Of a stretch of 64,000 bases of DNA, positions 14,195-59,357 are shown piece after piece. Each line of letters opens with the position of its first letter. The stretch's first letter is position 1. The stretch spans positions 1 to 64,000 of IMG/VR virus record IMGVR_UViG_3300010885_046411. One strand, 5' to 3'. The stretch is from a virus. The notes beneath the pieces are model-generated. The model was not told where the DNA came from. It worked only from the letters and a program-made list of their open reading frames with translations, and ran no database searches. Made by a program: the position numbers and the translations under genes.

Positions 14195-14401
14195 TTAGAC
14201 GGTTACGGGTTCGTTCCAAATACATTTGGCATCTTCTGCAAGTACATAGGCGCGGAACTTAGAACGGGCCTCTCTTAGACCACAATAGGCGTATGCCTGT
14301 TTGTACTCTACACATTTGTAGGTAGTGCGACAAATGATACAAGATAAGCCACCAAAAGTCCTTACCTTTTCTGTGCTTATGTCAAACTGTGCTTTTGTCA
14401 T
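14195..14401 (-). CDS. hypothetical early protein
   Basis: Likely ATG 14401. Confidence 0.55.
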   Translation of the reverse strand: MTKAQFDISTEKVRTFGGLSCIICRTTYKCVEYKQAYAYCGLREARSKFRAYVLAEDAKCIWNEPVTV

Positions 14402-14423
14402 GTTGGTTAGATGGTTAGAGGGT

Positions 14424-14612
14424 TTATTGATTAACGTGACGCGTTTTAATTGTTTGCACATTGTACCCAGCACAGGCCAGCCGTTCTACAACAGCAGCGA
14501 CGGCTAGTACCTTAGACGTAGCTTGTATGTGTTCTATACAAAACCAAACACCCCATTTGCCCCAAGCGTCAGAGTAGCCAGCGTGCGTAACAGCGAACCA
14601 AAAATTTTTCAT
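14424..14612 (-). CDS. hypothetical early protein
   Basis: Likely ATG 14612; first gene after the promoter at 14661. Confidence 0.55.
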   Translation of the reverse strand: MKNFWFAVTHAGYSDAWGKWGVWFCIEHIQATSKVLAVAAVVERLACAGYNVQTIKTRHVNQ

Positions 14613-14660
14613 GTTGAAGATGATAATAGGGTAGCACCATTGCCACCCTGTTTGATACTT

Positions 14661-14668
14661 CAAATATA
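14661..14668 (-). promoter_or_regulatory. -7 element TATATTTG driving the early array
   Basis: Exact consensus with TTTG about 16 nt upstream; palindrome TTACGCGTAA at 14711-14720. Confidence 0.65.
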
Positions 14669-15204
14669 GAACGCCCGTTTTACGCAAATACTTAAATAAC
14701 AGCGAAAAACTTACGCGTAACTTACATAGGTTAATTTATTTATAGATACAACGAAACTCTATTACATACACCCAAACCGTTGTATATCATGCCTACCTAA
14801 ACATGTACAGAATAACGTACATACATTCTACTAACAAACTGCCACCACAGCCCAACACATACCACTGCCAAATAGGCACTATGCCATAAATCAAACTGAA
14901 CGGCCCCAACTCTTACAAGGCACCCAGACCGCATAGGTAGCCCTTAGATGCGGATATATGTATGGGGTAAGTATCTCCATAGGCTAGCCGATACGGGTAA
15001 CATATACGATAGTAGGAGATAGTTAGCAGATAGACTAGTTATGGGAGTCCTACTCTTTCGCCTCTCTCTCCCCCTTTCCCTCACCCCTCTCTATCCTATT
15101 TAACATAACGAAGCCCGTTTCCTTGAAACGTACGTACCATAGCCCTACCTAAATCCGTACAGCCAAACGTAGGAGCCTTCATTATGTTAAGTACACCCAT
15201 AGAA

Positions 15205-15283
15205 TGTATCTATTTAGATACAACCATCGTCGGACTGTATCTATTTGGATACATGCACCCCGACTCTTGGATACATGCACCCC
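15205..15283. repeat. palindromic, iteron-like repeats
   Basis: TGTATCTA-TT-TAGATACA (15205), TGTATCTATTTGGATACATGCACCCC (15236), TTGGATACATGCACCCC (15267). Confidence 0.7.
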
Positions 15284-16029
15284 GCCCCTTTGCTCTTAAG
15301 GGCAAGGGATACGCGGTAAGCGTAAGCCCTGCACCCGTTGCCCCGCCTATTACACCCCGACCCCACCCCCTCACACCCTTTCCGTCGGGGGATTGCTCGG
15401 CAGGCGGGGGTGTATATATGTTACTCCGCCCATTCTGACTATGCGCTACGGTAAACCCTCCTGCCACTCTGAGTTTGCTGCTACGAATAACATTCTGTCT
15501 GCACGTATGCTTTACGCTGCTATATGTACTGCTTTCGTTTCATATTGACGGGTATTTGCTACGGCTCCGTATTTGTTAGCCTCGGTGGGAAACAAGCTGC
15601 ATTCTGTAGGAATGTACGCGTACTTTGTAGCAGGGTGGTTAAGCCGTGTAGGTTTTAGACCGCTTCGGTTGTTATACGGCTACGCGCTTGTAGCGCTTGC
15701 CTACAACCTAGCTTAGTAGTGTTTTTTTTGTGATTAGCGCGCGGTGGTAGCGCCCTGCGCGTACACAAGCGTGCGTGCTGGTAGTTTGTATGTTTTGGCG
15801 CGTATTGTAGCGTAGCGTACAATTAAGCGCCGTATTCGGTGTGTCTGTGGTAATATACCGCTGCTAGGTTATAGGTATCGGCGGGTTTGGCTCCGCGCTG
15901 TTGGCGCTTGCCTCACCGCCTATTGTATATAGGGAAAGGTATGCGCTATTGGGGAGCGTATGCGGGTAGAGAGAGGATATGGCTAGGATATAGTTATATT
16001 CCCCCCCTGTTAAAATACTTAAATATTTT

Positions 16030-16242
16030 AATCTATGCTAATCATACTGTATGGTTTAGTATGACCGTGCATGGGTAGTAATGTGGGGGAACCGAAGTAT
16101 GAAGGTAAAGGATTTGAACCTTGTTTCATTACTGTATAACACTGGGCGCATTGACCTGAACCAAGCCACGTGTTATGTAGGCAAGTGTAGTAGTATCTGG
16201 GATGCACTATAAGATGGCATACGGAGTATTCCGTCCACTACT
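16030..16242 (-). ncRNA. candidate structured ncRNA
   Basis: Own TATCTTTG promoter, no ORF, multiple stems, AAGG-TTCAAAT-CCTT T-loop. Confidence 0.5.
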
Positions 16243-16254: not shown

Positions 16255-16333
16255 ATACATACCTAAGGTTATTTCCAAATCTGCGTACATCTTTTTTTTT
16301 CCAAATTAGTTGTTGCGATAATAAAAAGTGTTG

Positions 16334-16375
16334 TACCTTTGTCAAGTGCTACAAGGCTCTCCCTTCGAATCATAA
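16334..16375 (+). promoter_or_regulatory. promoter TACCTTTG plus tnpB-derived 9-codon leader
   Basis: 30/36 nt identical to the 5' end of the mini-tnpB (26564-26529, minus strand). Confidence 0.6.
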
Positions 16376-16378
16376 ATT

Positions 16379-16636
16379 ATGGAAACCAACACCTTCAAAG
16401 AGTCTGCTCTAATGCAGATGCTAACAACGGCATGTAATGAGGCTGTGTTGTCTTTTCACAACGCAGTAGCCGTTAGCCCTAAATTATATGATTGGGTAAG
16501 GTCAATGCAGCCCACTAACACAGACCCAGAAAGGGTCGGCTTTATGGGTGTTCATGTAATTCTTGCAGAAAGCCTGCCCGAATATTCTTGCATACCATGT
16601 CTTCTAAGTAAAGACTTAGACGCTATCCCCTCATAG
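16379..16636 (+). CDS. hypothetical protein
   Basis: First gene of the rightward operon. Confidence 0.65.
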   Translation: METNTFKESALMQMLTTACNEAVLSFHNAVAVSPKLYDWVRSMQPTNTDPERVGFMGVHVILAESLPEYSCIPCLLSKDLDAIPS

Positions 16637-17720: not shown

Positions 17721-17923
17721 TTCCCGTACCCAACGAACAACTCATAAGCCTTAGAGTGTGGGCCTATGACAAAGCCACCGAACAAAACGTTGATAGGCCA
17801 GAGAAACGTGCCAACGATATTATTGATTGGCTGCTGTCTAACCCCGAAGGCACCAGGTCTCTTACACCTGTATTAGAGAGCGGTGGCCCCGCTTTAGAAG
17901 AAGACCTTGTGCCAGTCCAATGA
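17717..17923 (+). CDS. hypothetical protein
   Basis: ATGA coupling on both sides. Confidence 0.6.
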   Translation: MIPVPNEQLISLRVWAYDKATEQNVDRPEKRANDIIDWLLSNPEGTRSLTPVLESGGPALEEDLVPVQ

Positions 17924-18102
17924 AGAAAAAACTGCTTCATAAGTTAAACATGGACTTTGCCCGTGTAGGCATACGGATTCTTCCGCATCCTCACGGGCAC
18001 CTAGTCCTCCACAACAATAAGCCCATTGGGCCAGCGCAGACAACTAAAGACAAAGCACGTGCCCAAGCCATCATCTTCTTAGAAAAACAAGCCATAGCCT
18101 AA
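17920..18102 (+). CDS. hypothetical protein
   Basis: Operon member. Confidence 0.55.
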   Translation: MKKKLLHKLNMDFARVGIRILPHPHGHLVLHNNKPIGPAQTTKDKARAQAIIFLEKQAIA

Positions 18103-18124
18103 GCATGGTTGCTATCTTTATGGC

Positions 18125-24272: not shown

Positions 24273-24300
24273 GCCAAGGGGAACTTCGTACATTTAGTGT

Positions 24301-24972
24301 ATGGATGTAATTTCCTTAGTTGCTGACATATACGGGCAGGTAGGGCGTACTGAGCAGAGTTTTGATGCCAATGATATTACAATGGCAATCAGAAATGCTC
24401 AGTCGCAACTACTCAATGACCTTGTATATGGGGTTAGGAGCAGACAAAAGGGCGCAATGCAGCCCCCTGAAATGCGGGACGGGGCCTTTACGTCTAAACT
24501 GTTAGCTCCCTTCTACGTGCCATTTGGCCCCATTCCCGCTTCTGGAACAGGCAACTTCACCATCGTGGGCGATGATGTTACCCGCCTAGATTACTTGATG
24601 GCTACCTATGCCTCTGGTAAAACATCCCTATGCGACACCATAAACCTAACGCAAAAGGGGTATAGAGATACTTCCTCTACCCTGTTAGTTGGCCCCACAG
24701 AGGCATATCCATCCTTGTGTATCATGGGGAACAATCAGTGGCAGGTATCGCCAGCCCCTACGCAAGTGCAGGGTATCTACATTAAAGGCTATACCGACGT
24801 GGTGTTTACCTTTGATGATACCAAGCCCTATAAGCTATCCCCTAGCATAGACACCCTATTGTGGACAGAGGAGGCTAGACCTTTCTTACTATCTACTGCT
24901 TGCAAAACACTAGGTATATCTGTACGTGATTTCCCACTGGCTGCTGCCGTAGCCCAAGCCGCACTAACCTAA
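24301..24972 (+). CDS. tail ring/tubular protein (crAss-like)
   Basis: One of three adjacent 200-230 aa proteins; N-terminal helices (I.MAI.NAQ) and a beta-rich core. Confidence 0.6.
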   Translation: MDVISLVADIYGQVGRTEQSFDANDITMAIRNAQSQLLNDLVYGVRSRQKGAMQPPEMRDGAFTSKLLAPFYVPFGPIPASGTGNFTIVGDDVTRLDYLMATYASGKTSLCDTINLTQKGYRDTSSTLLVGPTEAYPSLCIMGNNQWQVSPAPTQVQGIYIKGYTDVVFTFDDTKPYKLSPSIDTLLWTEEARPFLLSTACKTLGISVRDFPLAAAVAQAALT

Positions 24973-24973
24973 G

Positions 24974-25582
24974 ATGGAAGATGCCCGTTTAGACATATTG
25001 GCAGAGCAAGCCCATAGGCTGCTGGAGGGGGGCGATATACCCGCCGACACACGCTATTCCCGCAGGGAGTTGCGCCTATACATACAGCAGTGCATAGCGA
25101 AGTTAGCCCTAGACAGGGCCAACCAAGCCGCCCAAGTAAATAGAGCCGATGGCATGAAGCAAACGCTTGAGTCGCCAGCCTCTATGCTCGTTACCCTTGG
25201 CCCTATTAAGGTAGCCACAGATGTAACGGGTAGTTATGTAGTATTGCCTGAGCAAACAATATGGCTTCCTGCTGGCCGCAACTTAGATGCCGCCTATGCC
25301 GTTCGGGCGGGGGCGCAAGTGCGCGACTGCATGGTCGTCAAGCCACAAGATGCTGCCTCTTTACGGCGCATTAAAAATCAGTTTGCGGCCCCGTTTGTAT
25401 GGCAAGAATCGGGTCGGGTGTATGTAGATGGCTGCGGCCCCCTGCCTACGGCCTTGTCGGTACGCATACCCGTAGCGCAAGCAACGGATGAGGGCATAGA
25501 GGTAGAGGCTCTGTCTATGTGCCTACAAGCCTTTGCCAAGAAAAACAATATAGACTTCACCCCTGACCAAACACCTGAATAA
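24974..25582 (+). CDS. tail ring protein
   Basis: GGDIPADTRYSRREL pattern typical of crAss-like ring proteins. Confidence 0.6.
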   Translation: MEDARLDILAEQAHRLLEGGDIPADTRYSRRELRLYIQQCIAKLALDRANQAAQVNRADGMKQTLESPASMLVTLGPIKVATDVTGSYVVLPEQTIWLPAGRNLDAAYAVRAGAQVRDCMVVKPQDAASLRRIKNQFAAPFVWQESGRVYVDGCGPLPTALSVRIPVAQATDEGIEVEALSMCLQAFAKKNNIDFTPDQTPE

Positions 25583-25584
25583 TC

Positions 25585-26283
25585 ATGGTAGGCAAACGGC
25601 TCACGGACATCGTAAACGAAATCCAAATACAAGAAGGGGCAGCACAGCAGAAAGAGGTTAAGATGCTCTTGGATGGGTATGACTTTGTGCGCCGTATGGC
25701 CCTAGATGCTGCGGGGGTGGTTAAGCAGGTGCAGTTTGATATGCCCCTAAGTCGGCAGAAGCAGTTGCCAGAGGACTTTGTAGATTGGGTAGATGTGAAT
25801 GTATGTATCGCTGGCGGTGGATGGGAAAGCGTAGGCACTAAAACACCTACCCGCATAGGAGCCATTGTCCCCGCTAGTACCACAGCCGATGGTGTTAGCC
25901 CACTTACCATAGAGCAGGCCGTTATCAATACAGGCTACCCCAATGATAATGGCTGGTCTAACAAAGTGCTTGAGAGGCCACAGGCCGACAAGCATAAGAA
26001 TTTCTTTGTAATAGACAACGGCCTTATACGGTTTGCGCCAGAGATACCCGACTGCACCATACGCATCTTGTATTTGTCGCTATGCCATACGAATGAGCAA
26101 GAGACTATTTTGCACCCGTATTTTATACAGGCGTGTAAGGCGTATATCACCTATCGGCTAGACCCTACGCAGGCAAGGCAGTATGAGTACGAGAATGAGT
26201 GGTCTAAGGCGGTAGTTAGGCAGCAAGCGTTTAAGTTGCAAGACTTGCTAGACGTATTTTATACCTACACACCAAGACGGTAG
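25585..26283 (+). CDS. tail tubular protein (P22 gp4-like ring)
   Basis: LPEDFVDWV, I.ILYLS, IHPYF..A..AYI.Y motifs. Confidence 0.7.
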   Translation: MVGKRLTDIVNEIQIQEGAAQQKEVKMLLDGYDFVRRMALDAAGVVKQVQFDMPLSRQKQLPEDFVDWVDVNVCIAGGGWESVGTKTPTRIGAIVPASTTADGVSPLTIEQAVINTGYPNDNGWSNKVLERPQADKHKNFFVIDNGLIRFAPEIPDCTIRILYLSLCHTNEQETILHPYFIQACKAYITYRLDPTQARQYEYENEWSKAVVRQQAFKLQDLLDVFYTYTPRR

Positions 26284-26470
26284 TGTAGCGTAGGGAATGA
26301 TATACATCTCTAACCCATTGCTAGGATATAAGATGATTTACTATCTTGACATTTCACTGGCCTTCTACCCTTGGCTTTCACCAAAGATGTTTGAAGCACC
26401 TCCACGTCTGTAACGGGGCGTTTCCCACACCCCGATAAGGCCATAGCCTTAATGTTAATCGCCGCATTTA
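26280..26470 (-). ncRNA. omega-RNA (reRNA)-like scaffold plus putative guide
   Basis: GACGT-GGAG...GTGAA-ATGTC core; ATCTTTGGT-GAAA-GCCAAGGGT stem; terminal hairpin ending in TCAT. Confidence 0.6.
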
Positions 26471-26618
26471 TATTAGCCGCCCTCATTTCCAGAAGGAATT
26501 GCTCCCGTTGTTTAACGGTGGGGTTCAGTTTGAAGAGATAGCCTTGTAGCACCTGACAAAGATGCGAAACGTGGGTTAGATTTATATATTGCTCCCATCT
26601 TATATTTACTAAATGATA
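26296..26618 (-). mobile_element. miniature non-autonomous tnpB element (IS200/IS605- or IS607-derived)
   Basis: Flanked by direct repeat AATGATA (26296-26302 and 26612-26618); contains fused TnpB N- and C-termini and an omega-RNA-like scaffold. Confidence 0.7.
26310..26552 (-). pseudogene. tnpB: internally deleted tnpB (80 aa)
   Basis: MLQGYLFKLNPTVKQREQFL (OrfB N-terminus pattern) joined to NINAAINIKAMALSG (TnpB C-terminal NAAxNI); CATCTTTG-N4-GTG promoter. Confidence 0.7.
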
Positions 26619-27059
26619 AACGTAATCAAAGTCTCTCCCGAACATAATGACCTGCTGGCACATGACTGGCAGGAGGATGTTAGAGGCTTGTTTTATCGGC
26701 AGATATCCATGCCCAAGGGCAAGCCCAAGGAGGAATGGCTACATTGTGTGCTGGCATGGCGGCTCTTTAATGAGGACTTGTATAATAACCAGCGCAAGAA
26801 GATAGACCATATCAACGGCGATACAAGAGACTACACCAACGAGAATATATGCGTAGTCATAAAGACAAAATCTAAGACCCGCCGAGGGCATCTTATCCCC
26901 GTGCAGGGAGCGTTGATTGAGGGGAAAGGGCCGACTAGCTGTTGGGCTAAGTTATTATGCGATGATGGCTGGCGCACATTTACGGCAGAGACCGTAGTAG
27001 AGGCTAAGAAGAAACGGCAGTCGTATATGGATAAATTTGGGTACACTTTTGAAAAATAG
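26613..27059 (+). CDS. HNH endonuclease-like protein (degenerate)
   Basis: IDHINGDTRDYTNENI; the usual DN asparagine is replaced by Tyr; AP2-like C-terminus. Confidence 0.7.
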   Translation: MINVIKVSPEHNDLLAHDWQEDVRGLFYRQISMPKGKPKEEWLHCVLAWRLFNEDLYNNQRKKIDHINGDTRDYTNENICVVIKTKSKTRRGHLIPVQGALIEGKGPTSCWAKLLCDDGWRTFTAETVVEAKKKRQSYMDKFGYTFEK

Positions 27060-27114
27060 CAAAGAAAATTCTTTGTTATTGGGTTGGGGGAGTTAATTTT
27101 GTGGCATACAAATA

Positions 27115-28149
27115 ATGCCAATGCAAGAATCATATATCAACAAAATAATCAATGCCGATTGCATTGAAGGCATGAAAGCAATGCCAGACAACTCGGTGGA
27201 TTGCTGTATTACTAGCCCTCCTTACTTTGGCTTGAGAGACTATTTGGTAGATGGGCAAATAGGCTTAGAGCCTACACTGCCAGAGTATATACAAAACTTG
27301 GTTGCCGTTTTCAGAGAAGTGAAGCGTGTGTTAAAGTCAGAGGGCACACTTTGGCTTAACATGGGTGATAGCTATGCTGGCTCAGGCAAGGGGCGTAATA
27401 TTGATGGCACGGCACATGAGGCATCCTTGCTATCAAAGCAAGGGTCTAATGCTGGTACGGTTACTGGTAATATACAAGGCGGCTATACTCCCGAAGGGCT
27501 AAAACCAAAAGACCTTATGGGGGTGCCTTGGCGGCTTGCTTTTGCCCTACAAGACGATGGGTATTACTTACGTCAAGACATAATTTGGCACAAAACAAAC
27601 CCTATGCCAGAATCGGTAACTGACCGATGCACAAAATCTCACGAGTACATCTTCCTCTTGTCTAAGTCTAGCAGGTATTATTTTGACCATGAAGCCATAA
27701 AAGAGCCACTTGCTAATGCAAGCATTGGCAGAGCAGGCCGCAAACAAAATCTTATTGACCGTGAGGGGGTTGGTACTCTTGGTAAGCAAATTCTAAGTGG
27801 TGTAAATCAAGATAACGGGTATGCTGGCTTGGCTCAAGCCAGAAATGGCAAGACGGGATATGATTTAGAATATGGGATGCGTAGTAAGCGCAGCGTTTGG
27901 AGCGTATCTGTAAATTCTTTTTCAGGCGCTCACTTTGCCACGTTTCCAGAAGAATTGATTATCCCATGTGTGAAAGCGGGATGCCCTAAAGGGGGGCTTA
28001 TATTAGACCCATTCATGGGGGCTGGCACTACTGCCCTTGTGGCGGAATCACACGGTAGAAATTATGTAGGCTTTGAGTTAAACCCCGACTACATAAAAAT
28101 TGCCCAAAAGCGCATAGATGCGGCGTTTGGCATGTGGGCAAACAAGTAA
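27115..28149 (+). CDS. beta-class DNA methyltransferase (N4-C/N6-A)
   Basis: TSPPYF, IIWHK.NPMPES, HFATFP, LDPFMGAGTT. Confidence 0.93.
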   Translation: MPMQESYINKIINADCIEGMKAMPDNSVDCCITSPPYFGLRDYLVDGQIGLEPTLPEYIQNLVAVFREVKRVLKSEGTLWLNMGDSYAGSGKGRNIDGTAHEASLLSKQGSNAGTVTGNIQGGYTPEGLKPKDLMGVPWRLAFALQDDGYYLRQDIIWHKTNPMPESVTDRCTKSHEYIFLLSKSSRYYFDHEAIKEPLANASIGRAGRKQNLIDREGVGTLGKQILSGVNQDNGYAGLAQARNGKTGYDLEYGMRSKRSVWSVSVNSFSGAHFATFPEELIIPCVKAGCPKGGLILDPFMGAGTTALVAESHGRNYVGFELNPDYIKIAQKRIDAAFGMWANK

Positions 28150-31529: not shown

Positions 31530-34500
31530 ATGAACGAACCACAAGTACCGAATGATGGGCAGCCTACCGCCCCTTCTTTGCAGCCCGTATATGAATACTT
31601 GGCTCGTGATAAGGGGTTTAAGGATATTGTGCCCACCTATCAGGATTTTGTAGAGGCAAAAGACACAGAGGGTATGCTTTTGCATATATCTAAAGTGTAT
31701 GATAAAGACAAAACCTTTGCGACTATGCTTGACAAGGGAGTAGATGCTAAAACCGTGGCTGCCGAGCGGCAGCGTGCAGAGGCAGATAATCGCATACAAC
31801 AAAGGGAGTCGCAGGTTATTTCTCGTGCTAAAGATATAGCCCAAGAATTGTCGGCTACCGTGCGCCCTAAAAAATCAGGAGACGTAGATTACGCAGGCAA
31901 GGCCACATTAGGGCAATTATATGATTACTTTTCTGGTGCTGGTGGCGATTTTCAAAAGAATTTTCCGACAGAAAAAGATTTGCACCAAATTACAAAAACA
32001 CCCGAATTTCGTAAAACGCTTAAAGATGCTTATACGAAAGACCCCAACTTCAAACAACTAATTGATACGGGTACATACCCTGACCAAAGGCCAAGCAAAC
32101 GGCCTCAAAACGAGATGCAGCAGATGATATTTGATGTATCTCAGCAGCAGCAAGACCCTAACGAGACTAAGGTATCAGCAGGCTACAACCCCATAAAAAT
32201 TAAAGCCTTTGGGAAACAGTTTGAAGCACCGCGTATGCTATCAAACTTGGTTGCGTCTGCGGCTATCAATTTAACTAGGGGCGTAATTGGCGGCATATCT
32301 ACGTTTGTCGGTGCTGCTGGGCAGGGGATGAAGGCGTTTAGAGATATGGGGAACGCTGCAACGGGGCAAGGCGAAGAAGGCGTTGAGGCAGGATATTTAG
32401 AGCGCAAGGCCCAAGAAGTATTTGAAGGGGGTGCTAAACTAGCCAATTATGGCAGCGAGAAAGGGCAACAAGCCTTTGCGAATAGTGGTGTACCCCTAGA
32501 ATCTGGCGGCGTAGTAACCGACCCCAGTGCGGGGGCAGGCACAATAGCCAAGTCGGCGGCGGGATATGTGGCAGGGCAATTAACAAATTCACTGCCTTAC
32601 ATAGTCCCCTATCTGGCTGGCCCCGCCGCAGGGTTTGCGACAAATGTCGTGCAGATGTCTGGCGATAATACGCAAAACGCCTACGACAAACTAAAGAACA
32701 AGATAACGCAAGAAAACGGCGGCATACCCGCAACGGATGAGCAGGTATTAGAAAGTAAGCAACTAAACCCTATCATCTCTGTTATTGCCGCCGTGCCAGA
32801 GGCCGCTATTGAGCGATATTTTGGCGAGGGCTTCTTGGTAAAGAACTTAACAGAGGCGGTTGCCGCCAAGAAACTAAAGCAACTTGTCGCTGAAAAGGGG
32901 CAGGCAGGGCTTAAAGAGTTTGCACAAAAATACCTAAACAAGAATTTCGCCAAGGAATTTGCTGTTAATTTGGCAAAAGACGTTGCTGGCGAAGAAGTAC
33001 AATCAGGTATAGAGGCTACGCAAGGCAGCTATCAGGCTGGCACCCCACAAACCGATGCAGGCGGCGGGGCAGACCGAAAAGTATATACAGAGACGTTGGC
33101 GGCGGCGGGTGCGCTAGGCGTAGGGCTTGCTGCGGCACCTGCTATAATCAACTCCGTTAAAAGCAAAGGCCCAGCCCCCATAACCGAGCAAACCGCCGCC
33201 TCAATGGCTGGCGCATACACCATGCCCAATGCCCCCAAGGCAAGCCCACAGAAAGGGGCTGGCGTGGTTGATGCTATCAACGGCATACTTATAGATGCCG
33301 AGCCTAGCAAGTCTCGTAGTGCGGCAATGAAGGCCGTTCTGGAGGATGCTATGGAGCATGACGATGTGCCCATAACAACGCAAGACTTGGCGGGGCTATC
33401 TACAACGACAGAGGCAGGTACAGATATAGTATCTAGGCTGCGCCCCGATGAGGAAGGTAATCTAACCCTTGTGCAAGATGGGGAGGAGTTGCGGCCTCTA
33501 ACCAAAGAAGAAAGCGATGAGGCCAGCACCTTTGCTACGGCGAATTTATTGATAGGCGTTCATGCAGGCAGCCTAACCAAGGCTCATGCCAGAGTATTGA
33601 CGGACATCCTAGATGGGGCTGCGATAGCGCAAGCCAAGCAGTCTGCCGTTAATGACGATGGCTCACCCAAGAACCCGTTAGCCCTAGCGGCTGATAATGC
33701 CCTTACAGCCCTAAAAGGTATAGCCGACAAGAATGTCTTAGATACCGAAAGCGGCAAGGTAAAAGAGGGCGAAGTGCCCCAAGAGTTGCAATGGCAACGT
33801 GAGGCACTAGATAATATAGGTTCTATGCAGGCGGGGGATGTGTTTCGTGCTATGGATGCCGACATGGTATTTAATGGCATAGATGCCGATGGCAATGTAT
33901 CTATCACAGATAATAACGGGGCCACATTGACGCTTGCGCCAGAGCAAGTGGCGGGACTTATGACGGCCCAACGTGCCACTGATGCGGATGTGGCCGCACA
34001 GAAAGAGGCCGTATCGGCCTATGGCAATATACCCGCAAGCAGCCCTGCGTATGAGCCATTACGGGCAATGAAAGACTTCACGAAGTCTATGCGTGCTGCG
34101 TTCCCCAACTTGCAGGTTATTGCCGACAAGGGCGAGATGGATGCTGTAATCAACAAGAAAGGTATAGCCCTAAAAGATGGCGATACAGTCTATGGGTTTG
34201 TGCATAATGGCAAGGTGTACTTAGACCCCGACAAGGTTACAAAAGACACCCCTGCCCATGAGATACTAGGGCACGTACACAATAAACTGATGAAAGAGCA
34301 GATGCCTGACCTATATACTAAACTTACGGGTTTAGTTGGGCAGACACCGCTATATCAAGAGGTTGCTGATGATGAGTTCTATAAGGCACGTATAGCCGAT
34401 GGCTCTATGACCGCCGATGATATTGCCGAGGAGGCGTTGGCGCAGTTTATAGCCAAGCACTACGGCAACCAACAATCCCCGTATGTGGGCACACGTTGGT

Positions 34501-37500
34501 ATGAGAAATTGGCGGAGATAATCGGCAAGGCATGGCGTAAACTGTTCGGCAAAACGAAGCAGTTGGCAGACCTATCCCCTGCCGATATACAAACCCTAAC
34601 GCTAGAATCTTTTGGGGATTTGTTGAACCAAGAGGTTAAGCGTGGGCAGTCTAGCATAGCCCAAAAAGGCGGTAAGGCAACGAACGCTACTGACATATCT
34701 TTGAACCTTGCCAGCGGAGTAGTACCGCAAGCAACAAACACTCAAGCAAATGAGAATTTACCCCAGACCAGCAACCAAGAACCAGCCAATGCTGGACTTC
34801 GGCAATCGCAAACAGAAGCATCAACTCAGCGAGCAGGAGTTGAACAGTCTCCACAAAATGCTTACCGACGAGAAGAAGCAAGGGAAGCCCTCAAACAACT
34901 AAGTAAAGACGGCGTTCTAGTAAGCTCGGCTAAAACTGGCAGCACGGGCAAGCCTATGACAGAGGCAGAAATAGATGGGCAAATGGCCCTTCTTGATGCT
35001 ATGTCTAATGTATGGAGCAAGACGACAGGTAAAAACAACTTCTACGAGACGTTTATTTCAGACATCAAACGGGGCGACATAGCCTACGTTAAAAGTCTGG
35101 GCGGGGTTTTGTTCCAAGATGAAAGCGACCCTAAGCGGCCCACTTCTACCGTTTCCTTAGCCATATTCAAAGAACAGCAGTTTGAGAAGATGGTGGGGCA
35201 GAACGTATCTCCCCAATCTATAAAGGACTTTATTAAAGGCCGTGGCAAGCAAATTGAGAGAGATATAATCAACGAAGTCCTTGACTACGACAAGTATCAA
35301 GGCCAGAAACGTATATCTTTCAACGAGTTCAAGGCTGACGTAGAAATCCAAGTTATGAAACTTGAGAAGATACGCACGCAGTCTTATGCAACTTATGGCC
35401 GAGAAAACCTTGGCTCATCAAGAGATTATGGCGACGCAGAAACGGTCATTTTCAACTCGCCAATAAATCACGGCGAAAAAGGGCACTTTAGCGGGGACTT
35501 TGACACTTCTGGCTTATCTGATAAAGAGTGGGAGGTAAGACAAATCCCTGGCACAGACACCTATGCGGCTGTTGATAAAGCCATGCCTGCGGGTGCCACA
35601 CAGGCTGAAATCCAACAATATGTAGGTACGGCTGGAACCGAGGCAGATGTAAAGAGGTGGGTTGAGCGAAGAAATGCAGCACTAGGGACACCTATAAACG
35701 AAGGTTTGTTTGGCCATATTAGGTCTTGGTTTAACAAGGCCACGGGCGTATTTCACTTAGCAGAGGCCCAAAGCGACTACTTCCAAAAAAACAAAGCATC
35801 AGAACTGCTTGCTGCTAGTGTGCCGCAGGATGAAGTAGATGAGTACATGAATAGGGAGGTTTGGAAGCCTTTTCACCAAAAATATGCCCAAGAAATCAAA
35901 GAAAACACTCAAATCAAAAGTGCATTTAAAGACAATGCTTGGGAGTTCTATGACAAGAATGGAACTATTGTAAATAGAAAACCGCTAAACCGTAAGCCAT
36001 TTATTGGCTATGAAGAGGGGGAACACGAGGAAGCCAATGGATTGTCTATTGCATTATCTCGCTTGGCCAGAACCGAAGTGAGCGTACTAGAACGCACACG
36101 GAATACTGGTATGGTTTTCACTGTTAATGTAGAGCCTGGCAATATAGAGCGAAGACAATTTGAGTTCAAAACAAGAGAAGAAGCAGAATCCTTTTCACTT
36201 GAATATGGACGTTATATCTCGGAAACCAAAGAGTATTCTGATGATTTGTATGATAGATACAAAAAAGAAAAGATTGCCCTTGAGATAAAGGAGCAAGAGT
36301 ATATTAACAAACGGGTTGAGGAGTTAAAAACTCAGAAGCCCCCACTGGTTCTAAAGCAATTCGTTGCTTCTCAGAAGGTACATGAACTGCGCCTATTCAG
36401 AGAGGCCATTAAACACGCCGCCGAGGAGGGGGCTACAACTCTGCGTTTCCCATCTCCCTACACCATAGCGGTTATAGAGGGGTATGTGAGTGGGGGCGGT
36501 AACGGCGCACCATATACCATTGAACAAGGTGATTCTGACCGATTGTATGCGGGGGATGTTATTGACTATGGCGGCACCCGAATGACCGTAGTAGATTCAG
36601 ACCGCTACAGCATAACTGTTGCGCCATCAGATGAGGTATATAACTATGATGTTTATGAGTATATATATAGCGAGGCCACGAAGCGTATTTATCAAATAGA
36701 ATATGAGGGGAAAAACCATTTTGCCGACATAGAAAACATAACCGCCGAAGATATCGCCTCTTATGAGCCTGACGAATGGATGGGAAATGTTGCTAAGGAC
36801 TTGCTCCAAGAGGCCATTGATAATGCCAAAGATGGCGAAACCGTGGCATGGCGTGATATTGAAAGTGAATTAGAAAGAATGGTAAGAGACAGTTACTCAG
36901 ACGAATCATTAGAAGATTTGTTTTTTGGGTATCAAGCCATCTATGCATACGGTAACGACTATGTATATGTAGTTAAAGGACGCGGCAGCGTGGAAACACT
37001 CCAACAGCCAGATGAGTACGAGGCGGTATCTAACGCAGATAATTATGAAGAAAACCTGTCCTCTGAACAAAAAACAGTTGTAAGCAAATACAAAGAAATG
37101 GGCGAGGCGATTGTGAAGATGCGCCCAGATGCGAGCATTGTAACCGACGACAACGGTTTTGATTGGCTAGAAACCAAAATAACACCAGCAGATATCAGTA
37201 ACCCTGTTATTGCCTTCCAGCAAGAGGGGGCTAAGATTAAAGGGGCTGTTGATTTTGTTAGTGATAACAAAGCCACCATACACCTATTTGATGGAGCTGA
37301 TGTATCTACGCTGGCCCACGAAATAGGTGGACACATAGGGCGTAGGATGCTAGAAAAGATGGCTGAAACATCGCCTAAGTTTGCCAAAGACTACGAAACT
37401 GCCAAGAAATGGGCGGGTGCTAAAGACGGGGTATGGACTACAGCCGCCGAAGAAAAGTTTGCTCGTGGATTTGAGAAGTACCTACTGGAAGGCAAAGCCC

Positions 37501-40500
37501 CAAATGATGCGCTTAAAAACGTATTTAAGATGTTTGCCAAGTGGCTTACAAATATCTACCAGCACATTAAAGGCAGCAGCATAGACATAGAACTAACGCC
37601 AGAGATACGTCAGGTGTTTGACAACTTGCTTGCTGACCAATCCTCAACTACCGAATCTGCCCAACCTCTCACTACCCCCCAAAAGCCGAAACAAGAAGGC
37701 CCAATATTTGCAGACTTAGCAACTTTTGTTAAAACGCTATCCGAGGCAGACGCAAAAGAGTATGCACGATATGAAGACATAGCGTACAGGCTGGCTGCTA
37801 TGCAAGGCAGAGAGCAGGGCTATAAACCGTATGAGGTATCTAAGGCAGAGCGACAAGAGTACGCAGCCTTAGAACAAAAGTTTGACACTATGTTTGCTAA
37901 TTTTGCAGCAGAGGTTTATAAAGAGGATGAAGAATCGGCAAAAGAAATAGACATTGCGGCGAAAAAATTAAACGGTATAATTAAAAATCTTAAATACCCA
38001 GAATCTATTAAGGAAATAATAAGAAAAAGATTTGGATTAAATAGCAATGGCAACTATGTTTCTTCTATACCATTTGATACACTTGTAAAGTACAACGAGT
38101 TTTCCAGAACAACAAAATTTATAAAAGATATTTTTGCTGAATTACTAAGAGAAAAATATGGAGAATTTTCTAAACAGTATTCACATGAACTAGATAAAAT
38201 GTATAATCAAGTTAATTATTATATGCAAAGATTGCTGGATTCTGAGGGAGATGGTAGTGCACTGGTTGATGAAATACCTGAAGTTTCAAAAATTGCTAAT
38301 ATAGAAATCCATATACAAGATTTGTTTAATGAATTAGATAAGTCGGCTTTGAATGTTGCTTCGGCAGAAGAAAAATCTGAACCCAAGGGCAAAAAAGAGA
38401 GCGGAATAAAAGAAAAAAATTACCAACTTCAGCATCGTATAACCAAAGATGAGACTTCATCTACTTTAGATGACCTTACTCAAGGGTCTTCACCTTCTGA
38501 TATCTACACGAACATTGGACAATATGCAAACCTTTCTGAGAAATCATATCAAGAGTCCGTTAAAGCCGTAAAAGCGGCCAAAGGCAATCCCGATGCTATT
38601 GTTACCATATACCGTAGCGTACCCAAAGGTGTATCTGCTATAAATGCTGGAGACTGGGTTTCGTTGTCAAAAACCTATGCTACCGAACATGGGTATCACG
38701 AAACAGACCAAAGCCAAGATATGCCTGTTATATCAATGCAGGTAAAAGCTAAAGATGTTGTTTGGGATGGCAATGACCTTAATGAGTTTGCTTACTTCCC
38801 AAATGACATAAGGTTTTCTGCAACAACTGAAACCACAGCCGAAGAAAGCGGGGAATCCGAAAAGCCTAGCGGCCCCTTCAAAGACAGCCCCGCTATGTCC
38901 AAGGCCCAAGACGATAAAAAAGAAGCCGAGACAGCCCTTGCCGAAGCACAGAAGCGTGGGCAAAAGTCTCTTATAGACAAGGCAAAAGAGGAACTAGCCA
39001 AGGCCCAACTGGCCTACGATACCGAGTTTGGGAAGTATGTAGAGGCTAAAACGCCTGAACTATACATTAACTTAACCCGCCTATTTGAGGAGGCTACCAA
39101 CCGCAAACGCACCAAAGAGCAACTAGAGCGTGGCGAGGCAAACAAGTTCTTCGTTAAGGCTCTATTCTCAAAGCGGCCCGAAATCTCGGACATGAAGAAA
39201 TTTGGGCTGCTAAATAAGCAATTAGCAGACCTAGATGCCCTATCTGAACATGCCATACAGACACGCACCAACTACGTCCGTGATTTGGTGGATGGGCTAA
39301 CGGCCCCGCAGATACACCACATGGTACGCTATATTATACTTAGCGACGTAGTGGGGGCATACGATGAGAAATATAGGGGTGCCGATGGGTTGCGTGAGAA
39401 ACTATTGCCCTTGGCTCTGTCGGAGGCGCAGGCCCGTGAGCAGTTTGCCACGTATAAGGCATGGCTAGATGATAGCCCTATTGTTAAAGAGCGTGTAGAG
39501 TGGCGCAGGCAATACCTCAAGAACCTATACAATGAAGCTGTAAAATACGGCCTAGCCACGTCTTTTATCACAGACATAAAAGATGAAAATGAGCAATACT
39601 ATGAGTGGTTCCACCGTAGTATTATGAAGTATGAAGATGGCGAGGGCGGCAAGGCTGGCAGAAAATATACCGAATCCTTAAATGCCACCCTAAAGCATAA
39701 TGCCTTTAGGGAACGTGCTGGCTCGGATGCCGACTACGATATACGCCTTGGTACGATAGATGGCAATGTGGTGGCAGCCCTAACGTATGCGGTAGAACGC
39801 CGTAAGATAGCCATAGAAATGATGGCCCCGTATGTCCAAAAGACTATGGATGTTAAGGAGGCACTAGAGAACTTCAAAAAAACTAGCTCGGCTTTCTTGA
39901 ACTTGACGCTGCTGATAAATCATATTACTGCCAAAATAGCTGACATCAATAAAATAGGCAGCCAAAATAGCGCAAAGCAGTCTTTAATACGGGCCAAGCA
40001 AGTAGAACTTGTGAGGGATAACCCAGAGCATATTGCCCTATTAAAAGAAATGGCAACCCTGCGCAAGCAGTCTAAAGCCTACCAAGATGCTCTATCTCAA
40101 TACGATAAAGCCCTAGCGCAAGCCCCGCTTGTAGAAAAGCGCAAGGCTGTATCGGAGGCAAAGAGGAAACTAACATCTCTTAAAAAGGCTGGAAATAAAT
40201 ACCAGTCCGAAAAACCCAAGTCTGGCATTGCAGTATATAGCAAGGAGGATGGCTCAAGGAAAGCCTATACCCCCCAATATGTTTTCGCTAAGATAGCCTA
40301 CGAAGAAGCAGAAAATGAGTACGCTACAGCCCTTGGCAACTTCGGCCCTGCCAACGAGGCTGCCGTAGCCAAGGCTAAAGCATTGTCGGAGATTGAGGGC
40401 TACCAAGCCCTGATGAATAAAGATAAAGAGGTTGTAGATGCCATAAAGGCAAGCGATGAGTTTACGACCTTAACCAAGCGAGCCGAAGACCTTAAAAAGC

Positions 40501-43199
40501 AGCAGACCCGCAAACTAGAAAATGCTAGAGATGCCTATGTGCGGGAGATGCAACGCCTTACCGACGACTACATGAGGGTTAATGCCCCCGAAGGCTATAC
40601 CCTTGTGGATGCAGGCAAGAACCCCGTCTATTCCCTAGAAAAGACCGACCCCTACGAGATAGACTCGCCCTTTGCGCAGATGGGGCTAGACCAGATAGCC
40701 GTGCCCGTAATTCGGGAGTTCACCATCAAAGATGGCGATGCAGTCTATCTACCCAATGAGGTGAAGGCTTTATTTGACCGCATGAATAGAGTTGCCTCCG
40801 AGAAGCCAAGTAAGGCGATGGAGCAATTTTACAAAGGCGTTAAATTCATTCGTAGGGCTTCGGCATGGAACTTACTCTTTAACCCTACCCGATTCTACAA
40901 CTTCCTATCTCAAAACATCATAGAGAACTCATCCCGTGCGATGGCTACAAACCTATGGGGTAACAATGTCTTTGCGATGGCTAGGGATGTGGGCAAGGAG
41001 GCCATTGCCTTTGCGAAGTTTATACGCACACATGAAGACCCTACGGGCAGGTATGCCAAGGCCCGTAAGGCGGGGGCTATAAATACAGACTTCGGGGCTA
41101 AGGTAATCGGCAATGCCCCATCTAATACCGAGGTTGAGATGCTAGATAGCAGCCGAGACCCGTATCTGGTATTCACATTTGGGGGCAAGGTATTTAACTT
41201 GCCACACGTAGAGCCGCTATCTATTAAGATACCCTTTAAGAAATCGCCTATCCAAATTTCGCAGGGGTCTAGGACAGATAAATACATTGGCAAGAACACC
41301 GTCTTATTGGGGGTTGCCAAATACCTATGGCAGAAAGCAGGCGCACCGTTGTATGGGGCTACTGTAGCCATAAACTCATCTGTAGAGAACGGCTACCGCA
41401 TGGCTACGATTGCCAAGTTAGAGGCTAAGGAGGGCGATATAAATAAGCCTCTTACGCAATACTATTCTTCTAATGCCAAGCAGATAAACTCCATCTTTGA
41501 TGAGACCGTTAAGCGGGTGAAAGCCAGCGACGAGTTTTATAAGACCCCAAAGGCAGGCGAAAAGCCGCCATACCCCGTAGATGCCAAGACAGGTAAATAC
41601 CTTACCGATGGCGGGCGGGCGTTGCTACGCCGTGCTAGGGAGCAACAGATAGGGGCTATTGCTGCCGACATATACGGCAACTACTTAGAGACCCCCTACT
41701 TCATAGACCAAGGCGAGAAAATGGGGTTATTGATGTTTTCCCGCTACCAAGCCGTGAACGTCAAGACTACCATAAATGCCTTCCGAAACAACTTTATCAT
41801 GCCTCGGCAACTGATGCCAGATGGAACCACCAATACCGCCTTCCCCGTAACGGCAGGTAAGTTGGCGGCTAAGTTTGGATGGCGCACTACGGGCAGGTTC
41901 TTGCATGTCTTTATGTGGTATCAGGCCGCACAGTTATTAACGGCTGCGATACGGTACTGGCAGACAAAGGATGATGATGAGATGAAGAAAGCGTATGAAA
42001 CGCTAGACAAAACCAACAAAAACCCGTTTGTAATTACCTCATTTGATAGGGCTACGCGCAAGGTAAAAAGCTACCAAGTACCCAATGCCGTTGGTGATTT
42101 AATGCGCTTGACACCCGTGTCCGACTTTATATACTCTAGGTATCAAGACTATCTCTACTTCCGAGGGGATAAAGGCGAAACTATTACCGATATGATGGAG
42201 GAGAGCATGAAAAATACGGCTGATGCATGGTATGGTATTGTATCGCCGACATTAAAGCAGATAAACTCTGTGCTTATAAATGCGATGGTGCAAGATAACC
42301 AAGATAGAAGTATGTCTCTGTTCCACTCTAAATATATGCCCCCTGCCAAGCAAGGCATAGAAGGGGTTGGCCGTGCGGCGGCATCTGTACTAGCGGCCAC
42401 ACAAGAGTACGATATGTTTGCGCGGCTTTTTAAAAAATCCTTTGATGCCAACTATGTGCCTAGCCCCTACGAGGAGGATAAGGCCAGAGAATCGCCGCTC
42501 GTTTCCTACACAACCCTAAACGCCGCAGACCTTGACAAAAAACAAATGCAGATGGCATACGCGGTAGCATCTGCCTCTATAGGCAAGTATGGCAAAGCAG
42601 GGGAGCGTACCGAGTACGACGACCTGAAAGAGAAGGAGAAAGAAATATCTAAGGCGTGTGCCTATGCCCTCATAAACGAAGATGTGGCTCTATTTTCTAG
42701 GACATACCCCCTCTTATTTGAGGCGGCGGGTACTGAAAAGAAAGCCGACAGAGCCATTCAATACGGCCTTAGCCTATATGACCCCTTCTCCATATACGAT
42801 TCTAAGGATAAGGAGCTAAAACATAAGCGGTATGCCATGATGTTTGGGGCCGCTATGGGCTTCACCTTGGGGCTACGTGATGCCATTGAGCCGTATAACC
42901 TAGACGAAGCCTATGCCGAGGAGGTAAAAATTATAGAGCATAATGCTGTATATGCCGTAGATGAGGCCGCAAAGAAGAAAAAACTAGATGCTAAGTATTC
43001 AGTAGCCTACGACCTCAAAGAGAAAGATAGGCGTATTTTGGCGCAGGGGTATCTTGGATATTTGAACCAGAAACGCCAGAACTACTACAGCCTCCTGAAA
43101 AACAACGAAGGGCAGAAGTTCTCGGACAAACTTGCCGATAGCGACGACCTTTACACTAGAGTGAGCAAATACTACAAGCAAACGCACCCCAACGAATAG
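31530..43199 (+). CDS. giant polyvalent/ejection protein (3889 aa)
   Basis: Two zincin-like motifs (AHEILGH...EEALA; AHEIGGH...EEKFA), an EAQSD module, a VTIYRSVP..GDWVSLS ART-like module and coiled coils. Confidence 0.8.
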   Translation: MNEPQVPNDGQPTAPSLQPVYEYLARDKGFKDIVPTYQDFVEAKDTEGMLLHISKVYDKDKTFATMLDKGVDAKTVAAERQRAEADNRIQQRESQVISRAKDIAQELSATVRPKKSGDVDYAGKATLGQLYDYFSGAGGDFQKNFPTEKDLHQITKTPEFRKTLKDAYTKDPNFKQLIDTGTYPDQRPSKRPQNEMQQMIFDVSQQQQDPNETKVSAGYNPIKIKAFGKQFEAPRMLSNLVASAAINLTRGVIGGISTFVGAAGQGMKAFRDMGNAATGQGEEGVEAGYLERKAQEVFEGGAKLANYGSEKGQQAFANSGVPLESGGVVTDPSAGAGTIAKSAAGYVAGQLTNSLPYIVPYLAGPAAGFATNVVQMSGDNTQNAYDKLKNKITQENGGIPATDEQVLESKQLNPIISVIAAVPEAAIERYFGEGFLVKNLTEAVAAKKLKQLVAEKGQAGLKEFAQKYLNKNFAKEFAVNLAKDVAGEEVQSGIEATQGSYQAGTPQTDAGGGADRKVYTETLAAAGALGVGLAAAPAIINSVKSKGPAPITEQTAASMAGAYTMPNAPKASPQKGAGVVDAINGILIDAEPSKSRSAAMKAVLEDAMEHDDVPITTQDLAGLSTTTEAGTDIVSRLRPDEEGNLTLVQDGEELRPLTKEESDEASTFATANLLIGVHAGSLTKAHARVLTDILDGAAIAQAKQSAVNDDGSPKNPLALAADNALTALKGIADKNVLDTESGKVKEGEVPQELQWQREALDNIGSMQAGDVFRAMDADMVFNGIDADGNVSITDNNGATLTLAPEQVAGLMTAQRATDADVAAQKEAVSAYGNIPASSPAYEPLRAMKDFTKSMRAAFPNLQVIADKGEMDAVINKKGIALKDGDTVYGFVHNGKVYLDPDKVTKDTPAHEILGHVHNKLMKEQMPDLYTKLTGLVGQTPLYQEVADDEFYKARIADGSMTADDIAEEALAQFIAKHYGNQQSPYVGTRWYEKLAEIIGKAWRKLFGKTKQLADLSPADIQTLTLESFGDLLNQEVKRGQSSIAQKGGKATNATDISLNLASGVVPQATNTQANENLPQTSNQEPANAGLRQSQTEASTQRAGVEQSPQNAYRREEAREALKQLSKDGVLVSSAKTGSTGKPMTEAEIDGQMALLDAMSNVWSKTTGKNNFYETFISDIKRGDIAYVKSLGGVLFQDESDPKRPTSTVSLAIFKEQQFEKMVGQNVSPQSIKDFIKGRGKQIERDIINEVLDYDKYQGQKRISFNEFKADVEIQVMKLEKIRTQSYATYGRENLGSSRDYGDAETVIFNSPINHGEKGHFSGDFDTSGLSDKEWEVRQIPGTDTYAAVDKAMPAGATQAEIQQYVGTAGTEADVKRWVERRNAALGTPINEGLFGHIRSWFNKATGVFHLAEAQSDYFQKNKASELLAASVPQDEVDEYMNREVWKPFHQKYAQEIKENTQIKSAFKDNAWEFYDKNGTIVNRKPLNRKPFIGYEEGEHEEANGLSIALSRLARTEVSVLERTRNTGMVFTVNVEPGNIERRQFEFKTREEAESFSLEYGRYISETKEYSDDLYDRYKKEKIALEIKEQEYINKRVEELKTQKPPLVLKQFVASQKVHELRLFREAIKHAAEEGATTLRFPSPYTIAVIEGYVSGGGNGAPYTIEQGDSDRLYAGDVIDYGGTRMTVVDSDRYSITVAPSDEVYNYDVYEYIYSEATKRIYQIEYEGKNHFADIENITAEDIASYEPDEWMGNVAKDLLQEAIDNAKDGETVAWRDIESELERMVRDSYSDESLEDLFFGYQAIYAYGNDYVYVVKGRGSVETLQQPDEYEAVSNADNYEENLSSEQKTVVSKYKEMGEAIVKMRPDASIVTDDNGFDWLETKITPADISNPVIAFQQEGAKIKGAVDFVSDNKATIHLFDGADVSTLAHEIGGHIGRRMLEKMAETSPKFAKDYETAKKWAGAKDGVWTTAAEEKFARGFEKYLLEGKAPNDALKNVFKMFAKWLTNIYQHIKGSSIDIELTPEIRQVFDNLLADQSSTTESAQPLTTPQKPKQEGPIFADLATFVKTLSEADAKEYARYEDIAYRLAAMQGREQGYKPYEVSKAERQEYAALEQKFDTMFANFAAEVYKEDEESAKEIDIAAKKLNGIIKNLKYPESIKEIIRKRFGLNSNGNYVSSIPFDTLVKYNEFSRTTKFIKDIFAELLREKYGEFSKQYSHELDKMYNQVNYYMQRLLDSEGDGSALVDEIPEVSKIANIEIHIQDLFNELDKSALNVASAEEKSEPKGKKESGIKEKNYQLQHRITKDETSSTLDDLTQGSSPSDIYTNIGQYANLSEKSYQESVKAVKAAKGNPDAIVTIYRSVPKGVSAINAGDWVSLSKTYATEHGYHETDQSQDMPVISMQVKAKDVVWDGNDLNEFAYFPNDIRFSATTETTAEESGESEKPSGPFKDSPAMSKAQDDKKEAETALAEAQKRGQKSLIDKAKEELAKAQLAYDTEFGKYVEAKTPELYINLTRLFEEATNRKRTKEQLERGEANKFFVKALFSKRPEISDMKKFGLLNKQLADLDALSEHAIQTRTNYVRDLVDGLTAPQIHHMVRYIILSDVVGAYDEKYRGADGLREKLLPLALSEAQAREQFATYKAWLDDSPIVKERVEWRRQYLKNLYNEAVKYGLATSFITDIKDENEQYYEWFHRSIMKYEDGEGGKAGRKYTESLNATLKHNAFRERAGSDADYDIRLGTIDGNVVAALTYAVERRKIAIEMMAPYVQKTMDVKEALENFKKTSSAFLNLTLLINHITAKIADINKIGSQNSAKQSLIRAKQVELVRDNPEHIALLKEMATLRKQSKAYQDALSQYDKALAQAPLVEKRKAVSEAKRKLTSLKKAGNKYQSEKPKSGIAVYSKEDGSRKAYTPQYVFAKIAYEEAENEYATALGNFGPANEAAVAKAKALSEIEGYQALMNKDKEVVDAIKASDEFTTLTKRAEDLKKQQTRKLENARDAYVREMQRLTDDYMRVNAPEGYTLVDAGKNPVYSLEKTDPYEIDSPFAQMGLDQIAVPVIREFTIKDGDAVYLPNEVKALFDRMNRVASEKPSKAMEQFYKGVKFIRRASAWNLLFNPTRFYNFLSQNIIENSSRAMATNLWGNNVFAMARDVGKEAIAFAKFIRTHEDPTGRYAKARKAGAINTDFGAKVIGNAPSNTEVEMLDSSRDPYLVFTFGGKVFNLPHVEPLSIKIPFKKSPIQISQGSRTDKYIGKNTVLLGVAKYLWQKAGAPLYGATVAINSSVENGYRMATIAKLEAKEGDINKPLTQYYSSNAKQINSIFDETVKRVKASDEFYKTPKAGEKPPYPVDAKTGKYLTDGGRALLRRAREQQIGAIAADIYGNYLETPYFIDQGEKMGLLMFSRYQAVNVKTTINAFRNNFIMPRQLMPDGTTNTAFPVTAGKLAAKFGWRTTGRFLHVFMWYQAAQLLTAAIRYWQTKDDDEMKKAYETLDKTNKNPFVITSFDRATRKVKSYQVPNAVGDLMRLTPVSDFIYSRYQDYLYFRGDKGETITDMMEESMKNTADAWYGIVSPTLKQINSVLINAMVQDNQDRSMSLFHSKYMPPAKQGIEGVGRAAASVLAATQEYDMFARLFKKSFDANYVPSPYEEDKARESPLVSYTTLNAADLDKKQMQMAYAVASASIGKYGKAGERTEYDDLKEKEKEISKACAYALINEDVALFSRTYPLLFEAAGTEKKADRAIQYGLSLYDPFSIYDSKDKELKHKRYAMMFGAAMGFTLGLRDAIEPYNLDEAYAEEVKIIEHNAVYAVDEAAKKKKLDAKYSVAYDLKEKDRRILAQGYLGYLNQKRQNYYSLLKNNEGQKFSDKLADSDDLYTRVSKYYKQTHPNE

Positions 43200-59322: not shown

Positions 59323-59357
59323 TCTGGATAGGTTCACTCAATAAGGGAAGCAATTTT

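Follow-up and report, generated by a model that had tools for sequence, protein, structure and literature searches.

A minus-strand open reading frame (ORF) of 80 amino acids (aa) in the virus record IMGVR_UViG_3300010885_046411 of IMG/VR is probably the relic of a tnpB gene that lost its middle part by deletion, and the locus as a whole is probably an inert, decaying insertion scar. The window analysed is the first 64 kb (64,000 nt) of this 72,231-bp phage record, which has direct terminal repeats; the source DNA is derived from freshwater metagenomes, according to the labels of the sequencing runs. The product of tnpB is the RNA-guided nuclease found in insertion sequences of the IS200/IS605 and IS607 types. 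The ORF lies within a plus-strand block of structural genes, in a gap of 329 nt (26284-26612) between a candidate virion structural gene and an HNH-like ORF. The initial annotation of the locus had proposed three roles for it, namely a guide RNA that borrows a TnpB in trans, a decoy for the TnpB of the host and a decaying element, and the third of these fits best.

The ORF begins with (M/V)LQGYLFKLNPTVKQREQFL and includes the stretch NINAAINIKAMALSG. It had been described as an 80-aa minus-strand ORF opened by a GTG codon and preceded at a distance of 4 nt by a promoter box, and all of these elements are present at the positions listed in Table 1. The first base of the promoter-like box deviates from the consensus TAnnTTTG. 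The frame is open through the deletion junction and the tail of the predicted product is basic. The first ATG of the ORF, at 26486, would give an alternative product of 58 aa.

The similarity to TnpB was assessed using the E. coli IS609 insQ product and 30 loci identified with PF07282 in 401 genomes from a single phylum, the candidate host phylum, where 25 of the 401 genomes contained a match. Twenty of the 30 loci, with an ORF of at least 300 aa and a RuvC-III-like motif near its end, were kept, and the other ten (L108-L116 and L121) were dropped. A profile of 388 columns was built for hhalign from 13 TnpB sequences (12 sampled loci and E. coli InsQ). Residues 25-41 of the ORF were aligned to columns 345-361 of this profile (P 2e-4, probability 46%), and in a ranking of 290 six-frame phage segments of 60-160 aa the focal segment came first, with a P value of 5.4e-4 against 0.0078 for the runner-up. 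It was also the first of 2100 six-frame segments of at least 20 aa when searched, with filters off, with a hidden Markov model (HMM) of the 20 TnpB tails (E 0.014, next 0.99). The pattern NAA.NI occurs once in the 144,458 six-frame positions of the genome, at the focal ORF, where a Markov model gives a mean of 0.13. Sampled TnpB tails read DRDVNAAINIKNFA and NNIKKFAL, and their counterpart in the focal ORF is NINAAINIKAMAL. The 80-aa ORF shares with tnpB products the RuvC-III motif (x-x-N-A-A-x-N-I) and the short tail after it, but Asn takes the place of an Asp found without exception in the 13 aligned TnpB sequences.

The opposite end of the ORF resembles the opposite end of TnpB. The only Pfam family matched was HTH_OrfB_IS605 (PF12323), where residues 1-19 correspond to profile positions 1-20, with an E value of 0.12 (12.3 bits) for the complete 80 aa and 0.0078 (16.1 bits) for the first 21 aa, against a cut-off of 21 bits; only about the first 20 of the 47 profile positions are represented. 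When the N-terminal 23 residues were compared with the profile of 13 TnpB sequences, hhalign aligned residues 1-17 to columns 1-17 with a P value of 0.0038, which rose to 0.022 when the first residue was read as V. Among 600 random peptides of 23 aa used as a control, one reached a P value of 0.0038 and none was aligned at the N-terminus of the profile. The N-terminus of the ORF appears to share the motif G-aromatic-x-aromatic-K/R-L-x-P-T-x-x-Q with tnpB products.

Of the roughly 400 residues of a TnpB, about 330 are absent between the two TnpB-like ends. PF01385 (OrfB_IS605), which contains RuvC-I and RuvC-II, was matched neither in the ORF nor, at E<=1, in the 72-kb record; PF07282, the family of the zinc ribbon that binds the target nucleic acid, gave no match in the record at E<=10, and there are no Cys pairs ahead of the motif in the ORF. 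Profile searches of the 72 kb revealed no other tnpB, no Y1_Tnp and no match to the Resolvase family. The initial annotation was thus right that the nuclease is missing, and its description of a TnpB N-terminus fused in frame to a TnpB C-terminus agrees with the Pfam, HMM and hhalign evidence at both ends.

Taken on its sequence, the ORF is very likely of TnpB ancestry, because each end of the profile is matched independently at its proper place, and the matches are collinear, share one frame and start from the first codon. A number of results weigh against this ancestry. No single test reached a curated threshold, the Pfam score being 16.1 bits against 21 and the hhalign probabilities 46% and 8.7%. 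The profile check of the two peptide halves, which had been proposed earlier, placed both ends and made them top-ranked or rare among the controls, but all scores were below the curated thresholds. The full-length TnpB HMM put the focal segment in second place (E 4.5), and the N-terminal TnpB HMM gave 2.7 bits. A phmmer search of 1.84 billion protein representatives returned only the same ORF, read from an upstream ATG; BLASTP of the ORF against E. coli InsQ, tblastn against phage and plasmid sequences (E<=10), a search of the PHROGs and the profiles PF12323 and PF07282 run on the phage record (E<=10) were all blank. The PDB yielded three weak matches, none of them a TnpB, and NCBIfam one irrelevant match. 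A word-based search among longer proteins gave 26 candidates, none of which was confirmed at E<=10, and a pattern search for related loci in GTDB genome contigs gave 166 pattern matches, none confirmed. In the ESM Atlas, two clusters named 'Transposase (Fragment)' (0.89 and 0.88) and a RuvC_1 cluster (0.86) were found; all are below 0.9 and serve as leads only.

The deletion history, the firing of the promoter and the inertness of the relic are inferred, and the following course of events is suggested. An insertion sequence carrying tnpB would once have landed in an island of accessory genes, which includes the HNH and DNA methyltransferase genes. A later internal deletion would have removed about 330 codons, namely the WED and REC regions, RuvC-I, RuvC-II and the zinc ribbon, leaving the promoter-like box, about 20 codons and then, in the same frame, the RuvC-III motif through the stop codon. 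The catalytic Asp is now Asn, and the last approximately 150 nt would be the part that doubles as the omega-RNA scaffold in intact elements. The relic probably persists as a passenger of the accessory block, possibly carried along by co-conversion with a homing endonuclease gene. Most likely it can neither move nor act through RNA guidance, because no TnpB or transposase, no end hairpins and no second full copy were found. Against the inert part of this reading stand the ORF, which is still open and in frame, the retained promoter-like box and the strand-preferring fold of the 3′ half, described below.

The 154 minus-strand nt between 26450 and 26297 have a minimum free energy (MFE) of -50.9 kcal/mol (z -3.53), which was equalled by none of 200 shuffled sequences. 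The same 154 nt on the plus strand gave a z value of -1.31, the 5′ half of the relic RNA +0.68 and the whole 277-nt RNA -1.0, the last being at the level of chance. The MFE fold includes the GACGU/AUGUC closing pairs, a GAAA-capped stem of 9 bp, three of which are G-U, and a hairpin at its end. In the equivalent 3′ windows of the 20 real tnpB loci, z ranged from +1.06 to -3.78, and two of the 20 were at -3 or lower; the focal window, scored alongside them, reached -3.70 and is about level with the strongest. By GC-adjusted fold energy, it ranks 72nd of 7208 windows genome-wide, which places it in the top 1%.

The omega-RNAs overlap the 3′ region of tnpB ('overlapping' omega-RNA), as stated in the preprint of Meers et al. 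(10.1101/2023.03.14.532601), and the 3′ part of the relic may be a former omega-RNA. Rfam gave no match at E<=10 in 25500-27500 and none at the gathering score in the 64 kb; a check with RNA models had been suggested, and with those of Rfam it was negative. When the 3′ regions of the 20 TnpB loci were compared by blastn, the likeness was limited to the 25-30 nt that encode the motif. With no Rfam match, no such likeness and no relatives, the candidate omega-RNA is deduced from its position and a moderate fold signal. As to the 'intact omega-RNA cassette' of the initial annotation, the stems and the hairpin are present and a strand-specific fold lies at the expected position, but no Rfam model supports it and the fold is only within the top 1%. 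The guide and the transposon-adjacent motif (TAM) assigned to it are purely conjectural. Elsewhere in the genome, the folding windows at 59241-59454 (+), 24281-24434 (+), 17858-18111 (-) and 49081-49274 (+) are stronger than the focal one. A region at about 14200-16100, especially 15098-15331 (-), has no long ORFs and includes some of the strongest 154-nt folds, with GC-adjusted z values of about -3.0 to -3.2.

The idea of a mobile insert gained no support. The AATGATA repeats that had been taken as its bounds are present and 316 nt apart, but they are at chance level, with 15 families of direct repeats of at least 7 nt in the 601 nt around the locus, and neither an empty site nor end hairpins of the IS200/IS605 type were found with them. 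No such subterminal hairpins were found at either proposed end: folds of 81 nt of DNA at both ends, on both strands, had energies of -3.0 to -4.2 kcal/mol and z values of 0.03 to 0.83. The proposal of an insertion at the start codon of the HNH gene is not supported. The ORF at 26613-27059 is intact with its start uninterrupted, and therefore the 'restoring' of this start by the removal of 316 bp is trivial. An empty-site allele was not found by searches with exact patterns in IMG/VR or with a filled-or-empty pattern in metagenomes. Neither this allele nor a full-length parent tnpB, both of which had been expected in relatives, came to light in IMG/VR, metagenomes or GTDB genomes, and pattern scans of IMG/VR and metagenomes revealed no further copies. 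The DNA of the element, compared with the 401 genomes, gave seven short matches with per-genome E values of 7.8e-4 to 0.0095, which is about chance; two of the seven fell on the stretch encoding the motif, in ORFs without TnpB features.

It should be considered whether the ORF is unrelated to TnpB, being the phage's own small gene or small RNA with its promoter, whose TnpB-like stretches arose by chance. Apart from TnpB scores that are all under the curated cut-offs and the many blank homologue searches, a second copy of 42 nt at 16328-16369 argues for this. It comprises the promoter box and the first eight codons and belongs to the 5′ leader of an unrelated plus-strand operon of small genes, headed by ORF 16379-16636; because of this recurrence, a part of the 'N-terminus' serves elsewhere as a non-coding leader. 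On the other hand, the frame of this copy shuts after nine codons and it fits the TnpB consensus worse (QGSPFE versus QGYLFK), as a derived fragment would. It has the look of a piece derived from this tnpB 5′ end, and either it may have come to serve the phage as promoter and leader, or the promoter of the relic may stem from it. The two independent matches, which lie in order and in the same frame and cover columns 1-17 and 345-361 of the 388, are each top-ranked or rare among the controls, and the NAA.NI motif is unique in the genome, which makes an origin outside TnpB rather unlikely. An independent function of the 80-aa or 58-aa mini-protein, for instance in interfering with host TnpB or in nucleic-acid handling, would agree with the frame that stays open over the junction, the basic tail and a helix predicted by AlphaFold2 over residues 13-39. 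However, the same AlphaFold2 model has a mean pLDDT of 51, with half of the residues predicted to be disordered and the C-terminal 40 unstructured, no homologues were found in the searched protein collections, and the retained parts, judging from domain order, would not make up a folding unit of TnpB. A functional mini-protein is accordingly regarded as very improbable.

The most far-reaching alternative is a working cassette that consists of a guide only. Its transcript, starting from its own promoter, would carry the 3′ omega-RNA scaffold and a guide of about TCCCTACGCTACACTA, and a TnpB of the host, acting in trans, would cut phages free of the insert; with the insert-bearing genome as the repair template, the insert and its neighbours would then spread, or the sibling phages would die. 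What the deletion left is exactly the promoter and the stretch that begins at RuvC-III and runs to the end, which is the omega-RNA site of intact elements; the 3′ fold, confined to the minus strand, is at the strong end of the 20 real tnpB 3′ regions; and TnpB is carried by some of the sampled genomes of the candidate host phylum, in the number given above. Furthermore, the PATEs 'often encode' omega-RNAs that TnpB uses in trans, according to the preprint 10.1101/2023.03.14.532601. Against this, no RNA family was matched, the likeness to the 20 TnpB 3′ regions does not extend beyond the motif-coding nucleotides, the lack of relatives leaves no covariation test, the genome-wide rank of the fold is not outstanding and no empty-site allele was found. 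The boundary, the TAM and the guide are guesses, and no cognate TnpB is known. Such a cassette is considered unlikely. The idea of an active guide is backed by position and a moderate fold signal alone, and it is doubtful that a guide-only tnpB derivative of the phage hijacks the host TnpB against insert-free siblings, so that the insert and the HNH and methyltransferase genes home by repair or competitors are eliminated. If the 3′ RNA were active, a phage guide borrowing a host nuclease would represent a new route to bias inheritance or to fight siblings. Another possibility is a cis-regulatory or invertible segment, in which the promoter flips or a domain of the plus-strand mRNA controls the HNH and methyltransferase genes. 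The score of the 25-nt inverted repeat, an arm of which crosses the boundary proposed earlier, was reached by two of 300 shuffles, a 10/10 pair lies beside it, and a plus-strand fold pairs both ends of the gap (z -1.92, with three of 100 shuffles as good). But the two repeat pairs are not nested, a Resolvase-family recombinase was not found in the record, a contig from a different run spans 26227-26377 in the reference orientation with no joints seen, and the TnpB-like peptide stretches would be left unexplained; this possibility appears very slight. The reading as an inert tnpB relic is retained as the probable one, and the features of the locus are collected in Table 1.

Table 1. Position and basis of assignment of the features at the tnpB relic locus and of related sites in the window
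Feature	Position	Strand	Basis
80-aa ORF, GTG start at 26552, stop 26312-26310; probable internally deleted tnpB relic	26310..26552	-	ORF reading and TnpB likeness
Promoter-like box CATCTTTG, 7/8 of TAnnTTTG, 4 nt ahead of GTG	26557..26564	-	sequence match
Promoter box and first 8 codons, recurring at 16328-16369	26529..26570	-	81% over 42 nt, E 2.4e-5
Second 42-nt copy, preceded by a canonical TACCTTTG box and followed 10 nt later by the start (ATG) of ORF 16379-16636	16328..16369	+	81% over 42 nt
First 20 codons, TnpB N-terminus-like (HTH_OrfB_IS605 positions 1-20)	26493..26552	-	Pfam and hhalign
Residues 25-41 (AANINAAINIKAMALSG), RuvC-III motif and start of TnpB tail, Asp to Asn	26430..26480	-	hhalign, HMM, motif count
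Structured 3′ part, where a tnpB element would encode the omega-RNA scaffold	26297..26450	-	fold statistics
Flank that would be the guide, supposing that the 3′ part is an omega-RNA with its end at 26297; overlaps the structural-gene stop codon	26277..26296	-	inference; unique in window
AATGATA direct repeat, left copy (right copy 26612-26618)	26296..26302	+	copies 316 nt apart; chance level
Left arm of 25-nt inverted repeat (19/25) with 26572-26596	26293..26317		2/300 shuffles reach score; unexplained
Right arms of both inverted pairs; second pair (10/10) is 26326-26335 with 26596-26605, not nested with the first	26572..26605		repeat search
Upstream neighbour, 232-aa virion structural protein candidate	25585..26283	+	phrog_13977 E 1.1e-4, weak match
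Downstream neighbour, intact 148-aa ORF, weakly HNH_3-like	26613..27059	+	Pfam E 9.4e-4, 19.2 bits, below cut-off 24.8
DNA methyltransferase	27115-28149	+	profile match

TAnnTTTG boxes, the promoter type of Bacteroidota, stand close upstream of many ORF starts in this genome (68 observed versus 53 expected), and because of this the host may be one of the Bacteroidota. The DNA methyltransferase has relatives with 42-55% identity in 506 genome stretches; they are spread over many phyla, and it therefore carries little host information. The only match of the 232-aa structural protein among 5.8 billion proteins was the protein itself, and the 148-aa HNH-like ORF had no relatives in the searches of IMG/VR and metagenomes with neighbouring proteins. 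These searches provided no phage relative for a comparison of synteny, and blastn against phages found no relative of the phage DNA. The GC content of the gap (43.2%, versus 47.3% for the genome) falls in the 15th percentile and is uninformative. Immediately after the HNH-like ORF there is a palindrome CAAAGAA..TTCTTTG at 27062-27085 (+), possibly its terminator, and the structural block includes a single ORF of 3889 aa at 31530-43199 (+).

Sequencing runs in which the phage has a small share supplied further contigs. In four such runs, the contigs were only 151-259 nt in length, none of them covered 26378-26734, and no joints were seen. One contig from another study is identical over 26227-26377, which shows that the right-hand junction is filled there and has the reference orientation, and the one run of an RNA library with this phage gave a single contig, at 25709-25863. 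In a run labelled as a shale gas metagenome, short contigs were 92-97% identical to the phage at 25810-26194 and 26735-26993, that is, in the structural and HNH-like genes, with differences mostly spaced by multiples of three; a diverged sibling phage therefore exists.

The relic is one more degraded tnpB among very many and is mainly useful as annotation. It would account for an odd antisense ORF in a block of structural genes, and it would show that elements with tnpB have visited phages of a little-sampled freshwater group. Among the entries listed in a thin survey of the literature, there was no report of a phage-borne relic of such a kind.

Compared with tnpB genes (PF12323 with PF01385 and PF07282; for example, insQ of E. 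coli IS609), the relic has the RuvC-III motif and an apparent N-terminal motif, each at the right end of the ORF, but without some 330 of the roughly 400 residues, the zinc ribbon, RuvC-I, RuvC-II and the invariant Asp it could not act as a nuclease. The TldRs, presented in the abstract of 10.1101/2023.11.30.569447 as domesticated, nuclease-dead TnpB homologues that act as RNA-guided transcription factors, are likewise TnpB derivatives without cleavage; unlike them, the relic retains nothing of the protein but its two ends. In phages, free-standing homing endonuclease genes and their 'HEG islands' co-convert neighbouring DNA, as described in the review PMC13565253, and the relic, which has conserved structural genes on either side, similarly adjoins a free-standing HNH-like ORF. 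In contrast to HEG islands, the HNH assignment is below the Pfam cut-off and the relic is outside the endonuclease gene, and homing is a conjecture here. The PATEs, described in the preprint 10.1101/2023.03.14.532601, are minimal non-autonomous IS200/IS605 derivatives without protein genes; they keep conserved hairpin ends and several copies moved by TnpA, whereas the relic resides in a phage replicon, and no end hairpins, further full copies or TnpA were found for it. Guide-bearing derivatives without a nuclease, the PATEs with omega-RNAs, are already described in bacteria in that preprint, and the relic resembles PATEs in being small (about 316-329 nt) and nuclease-less and in keeping the tnpB 3′ region of the omega-RNA.

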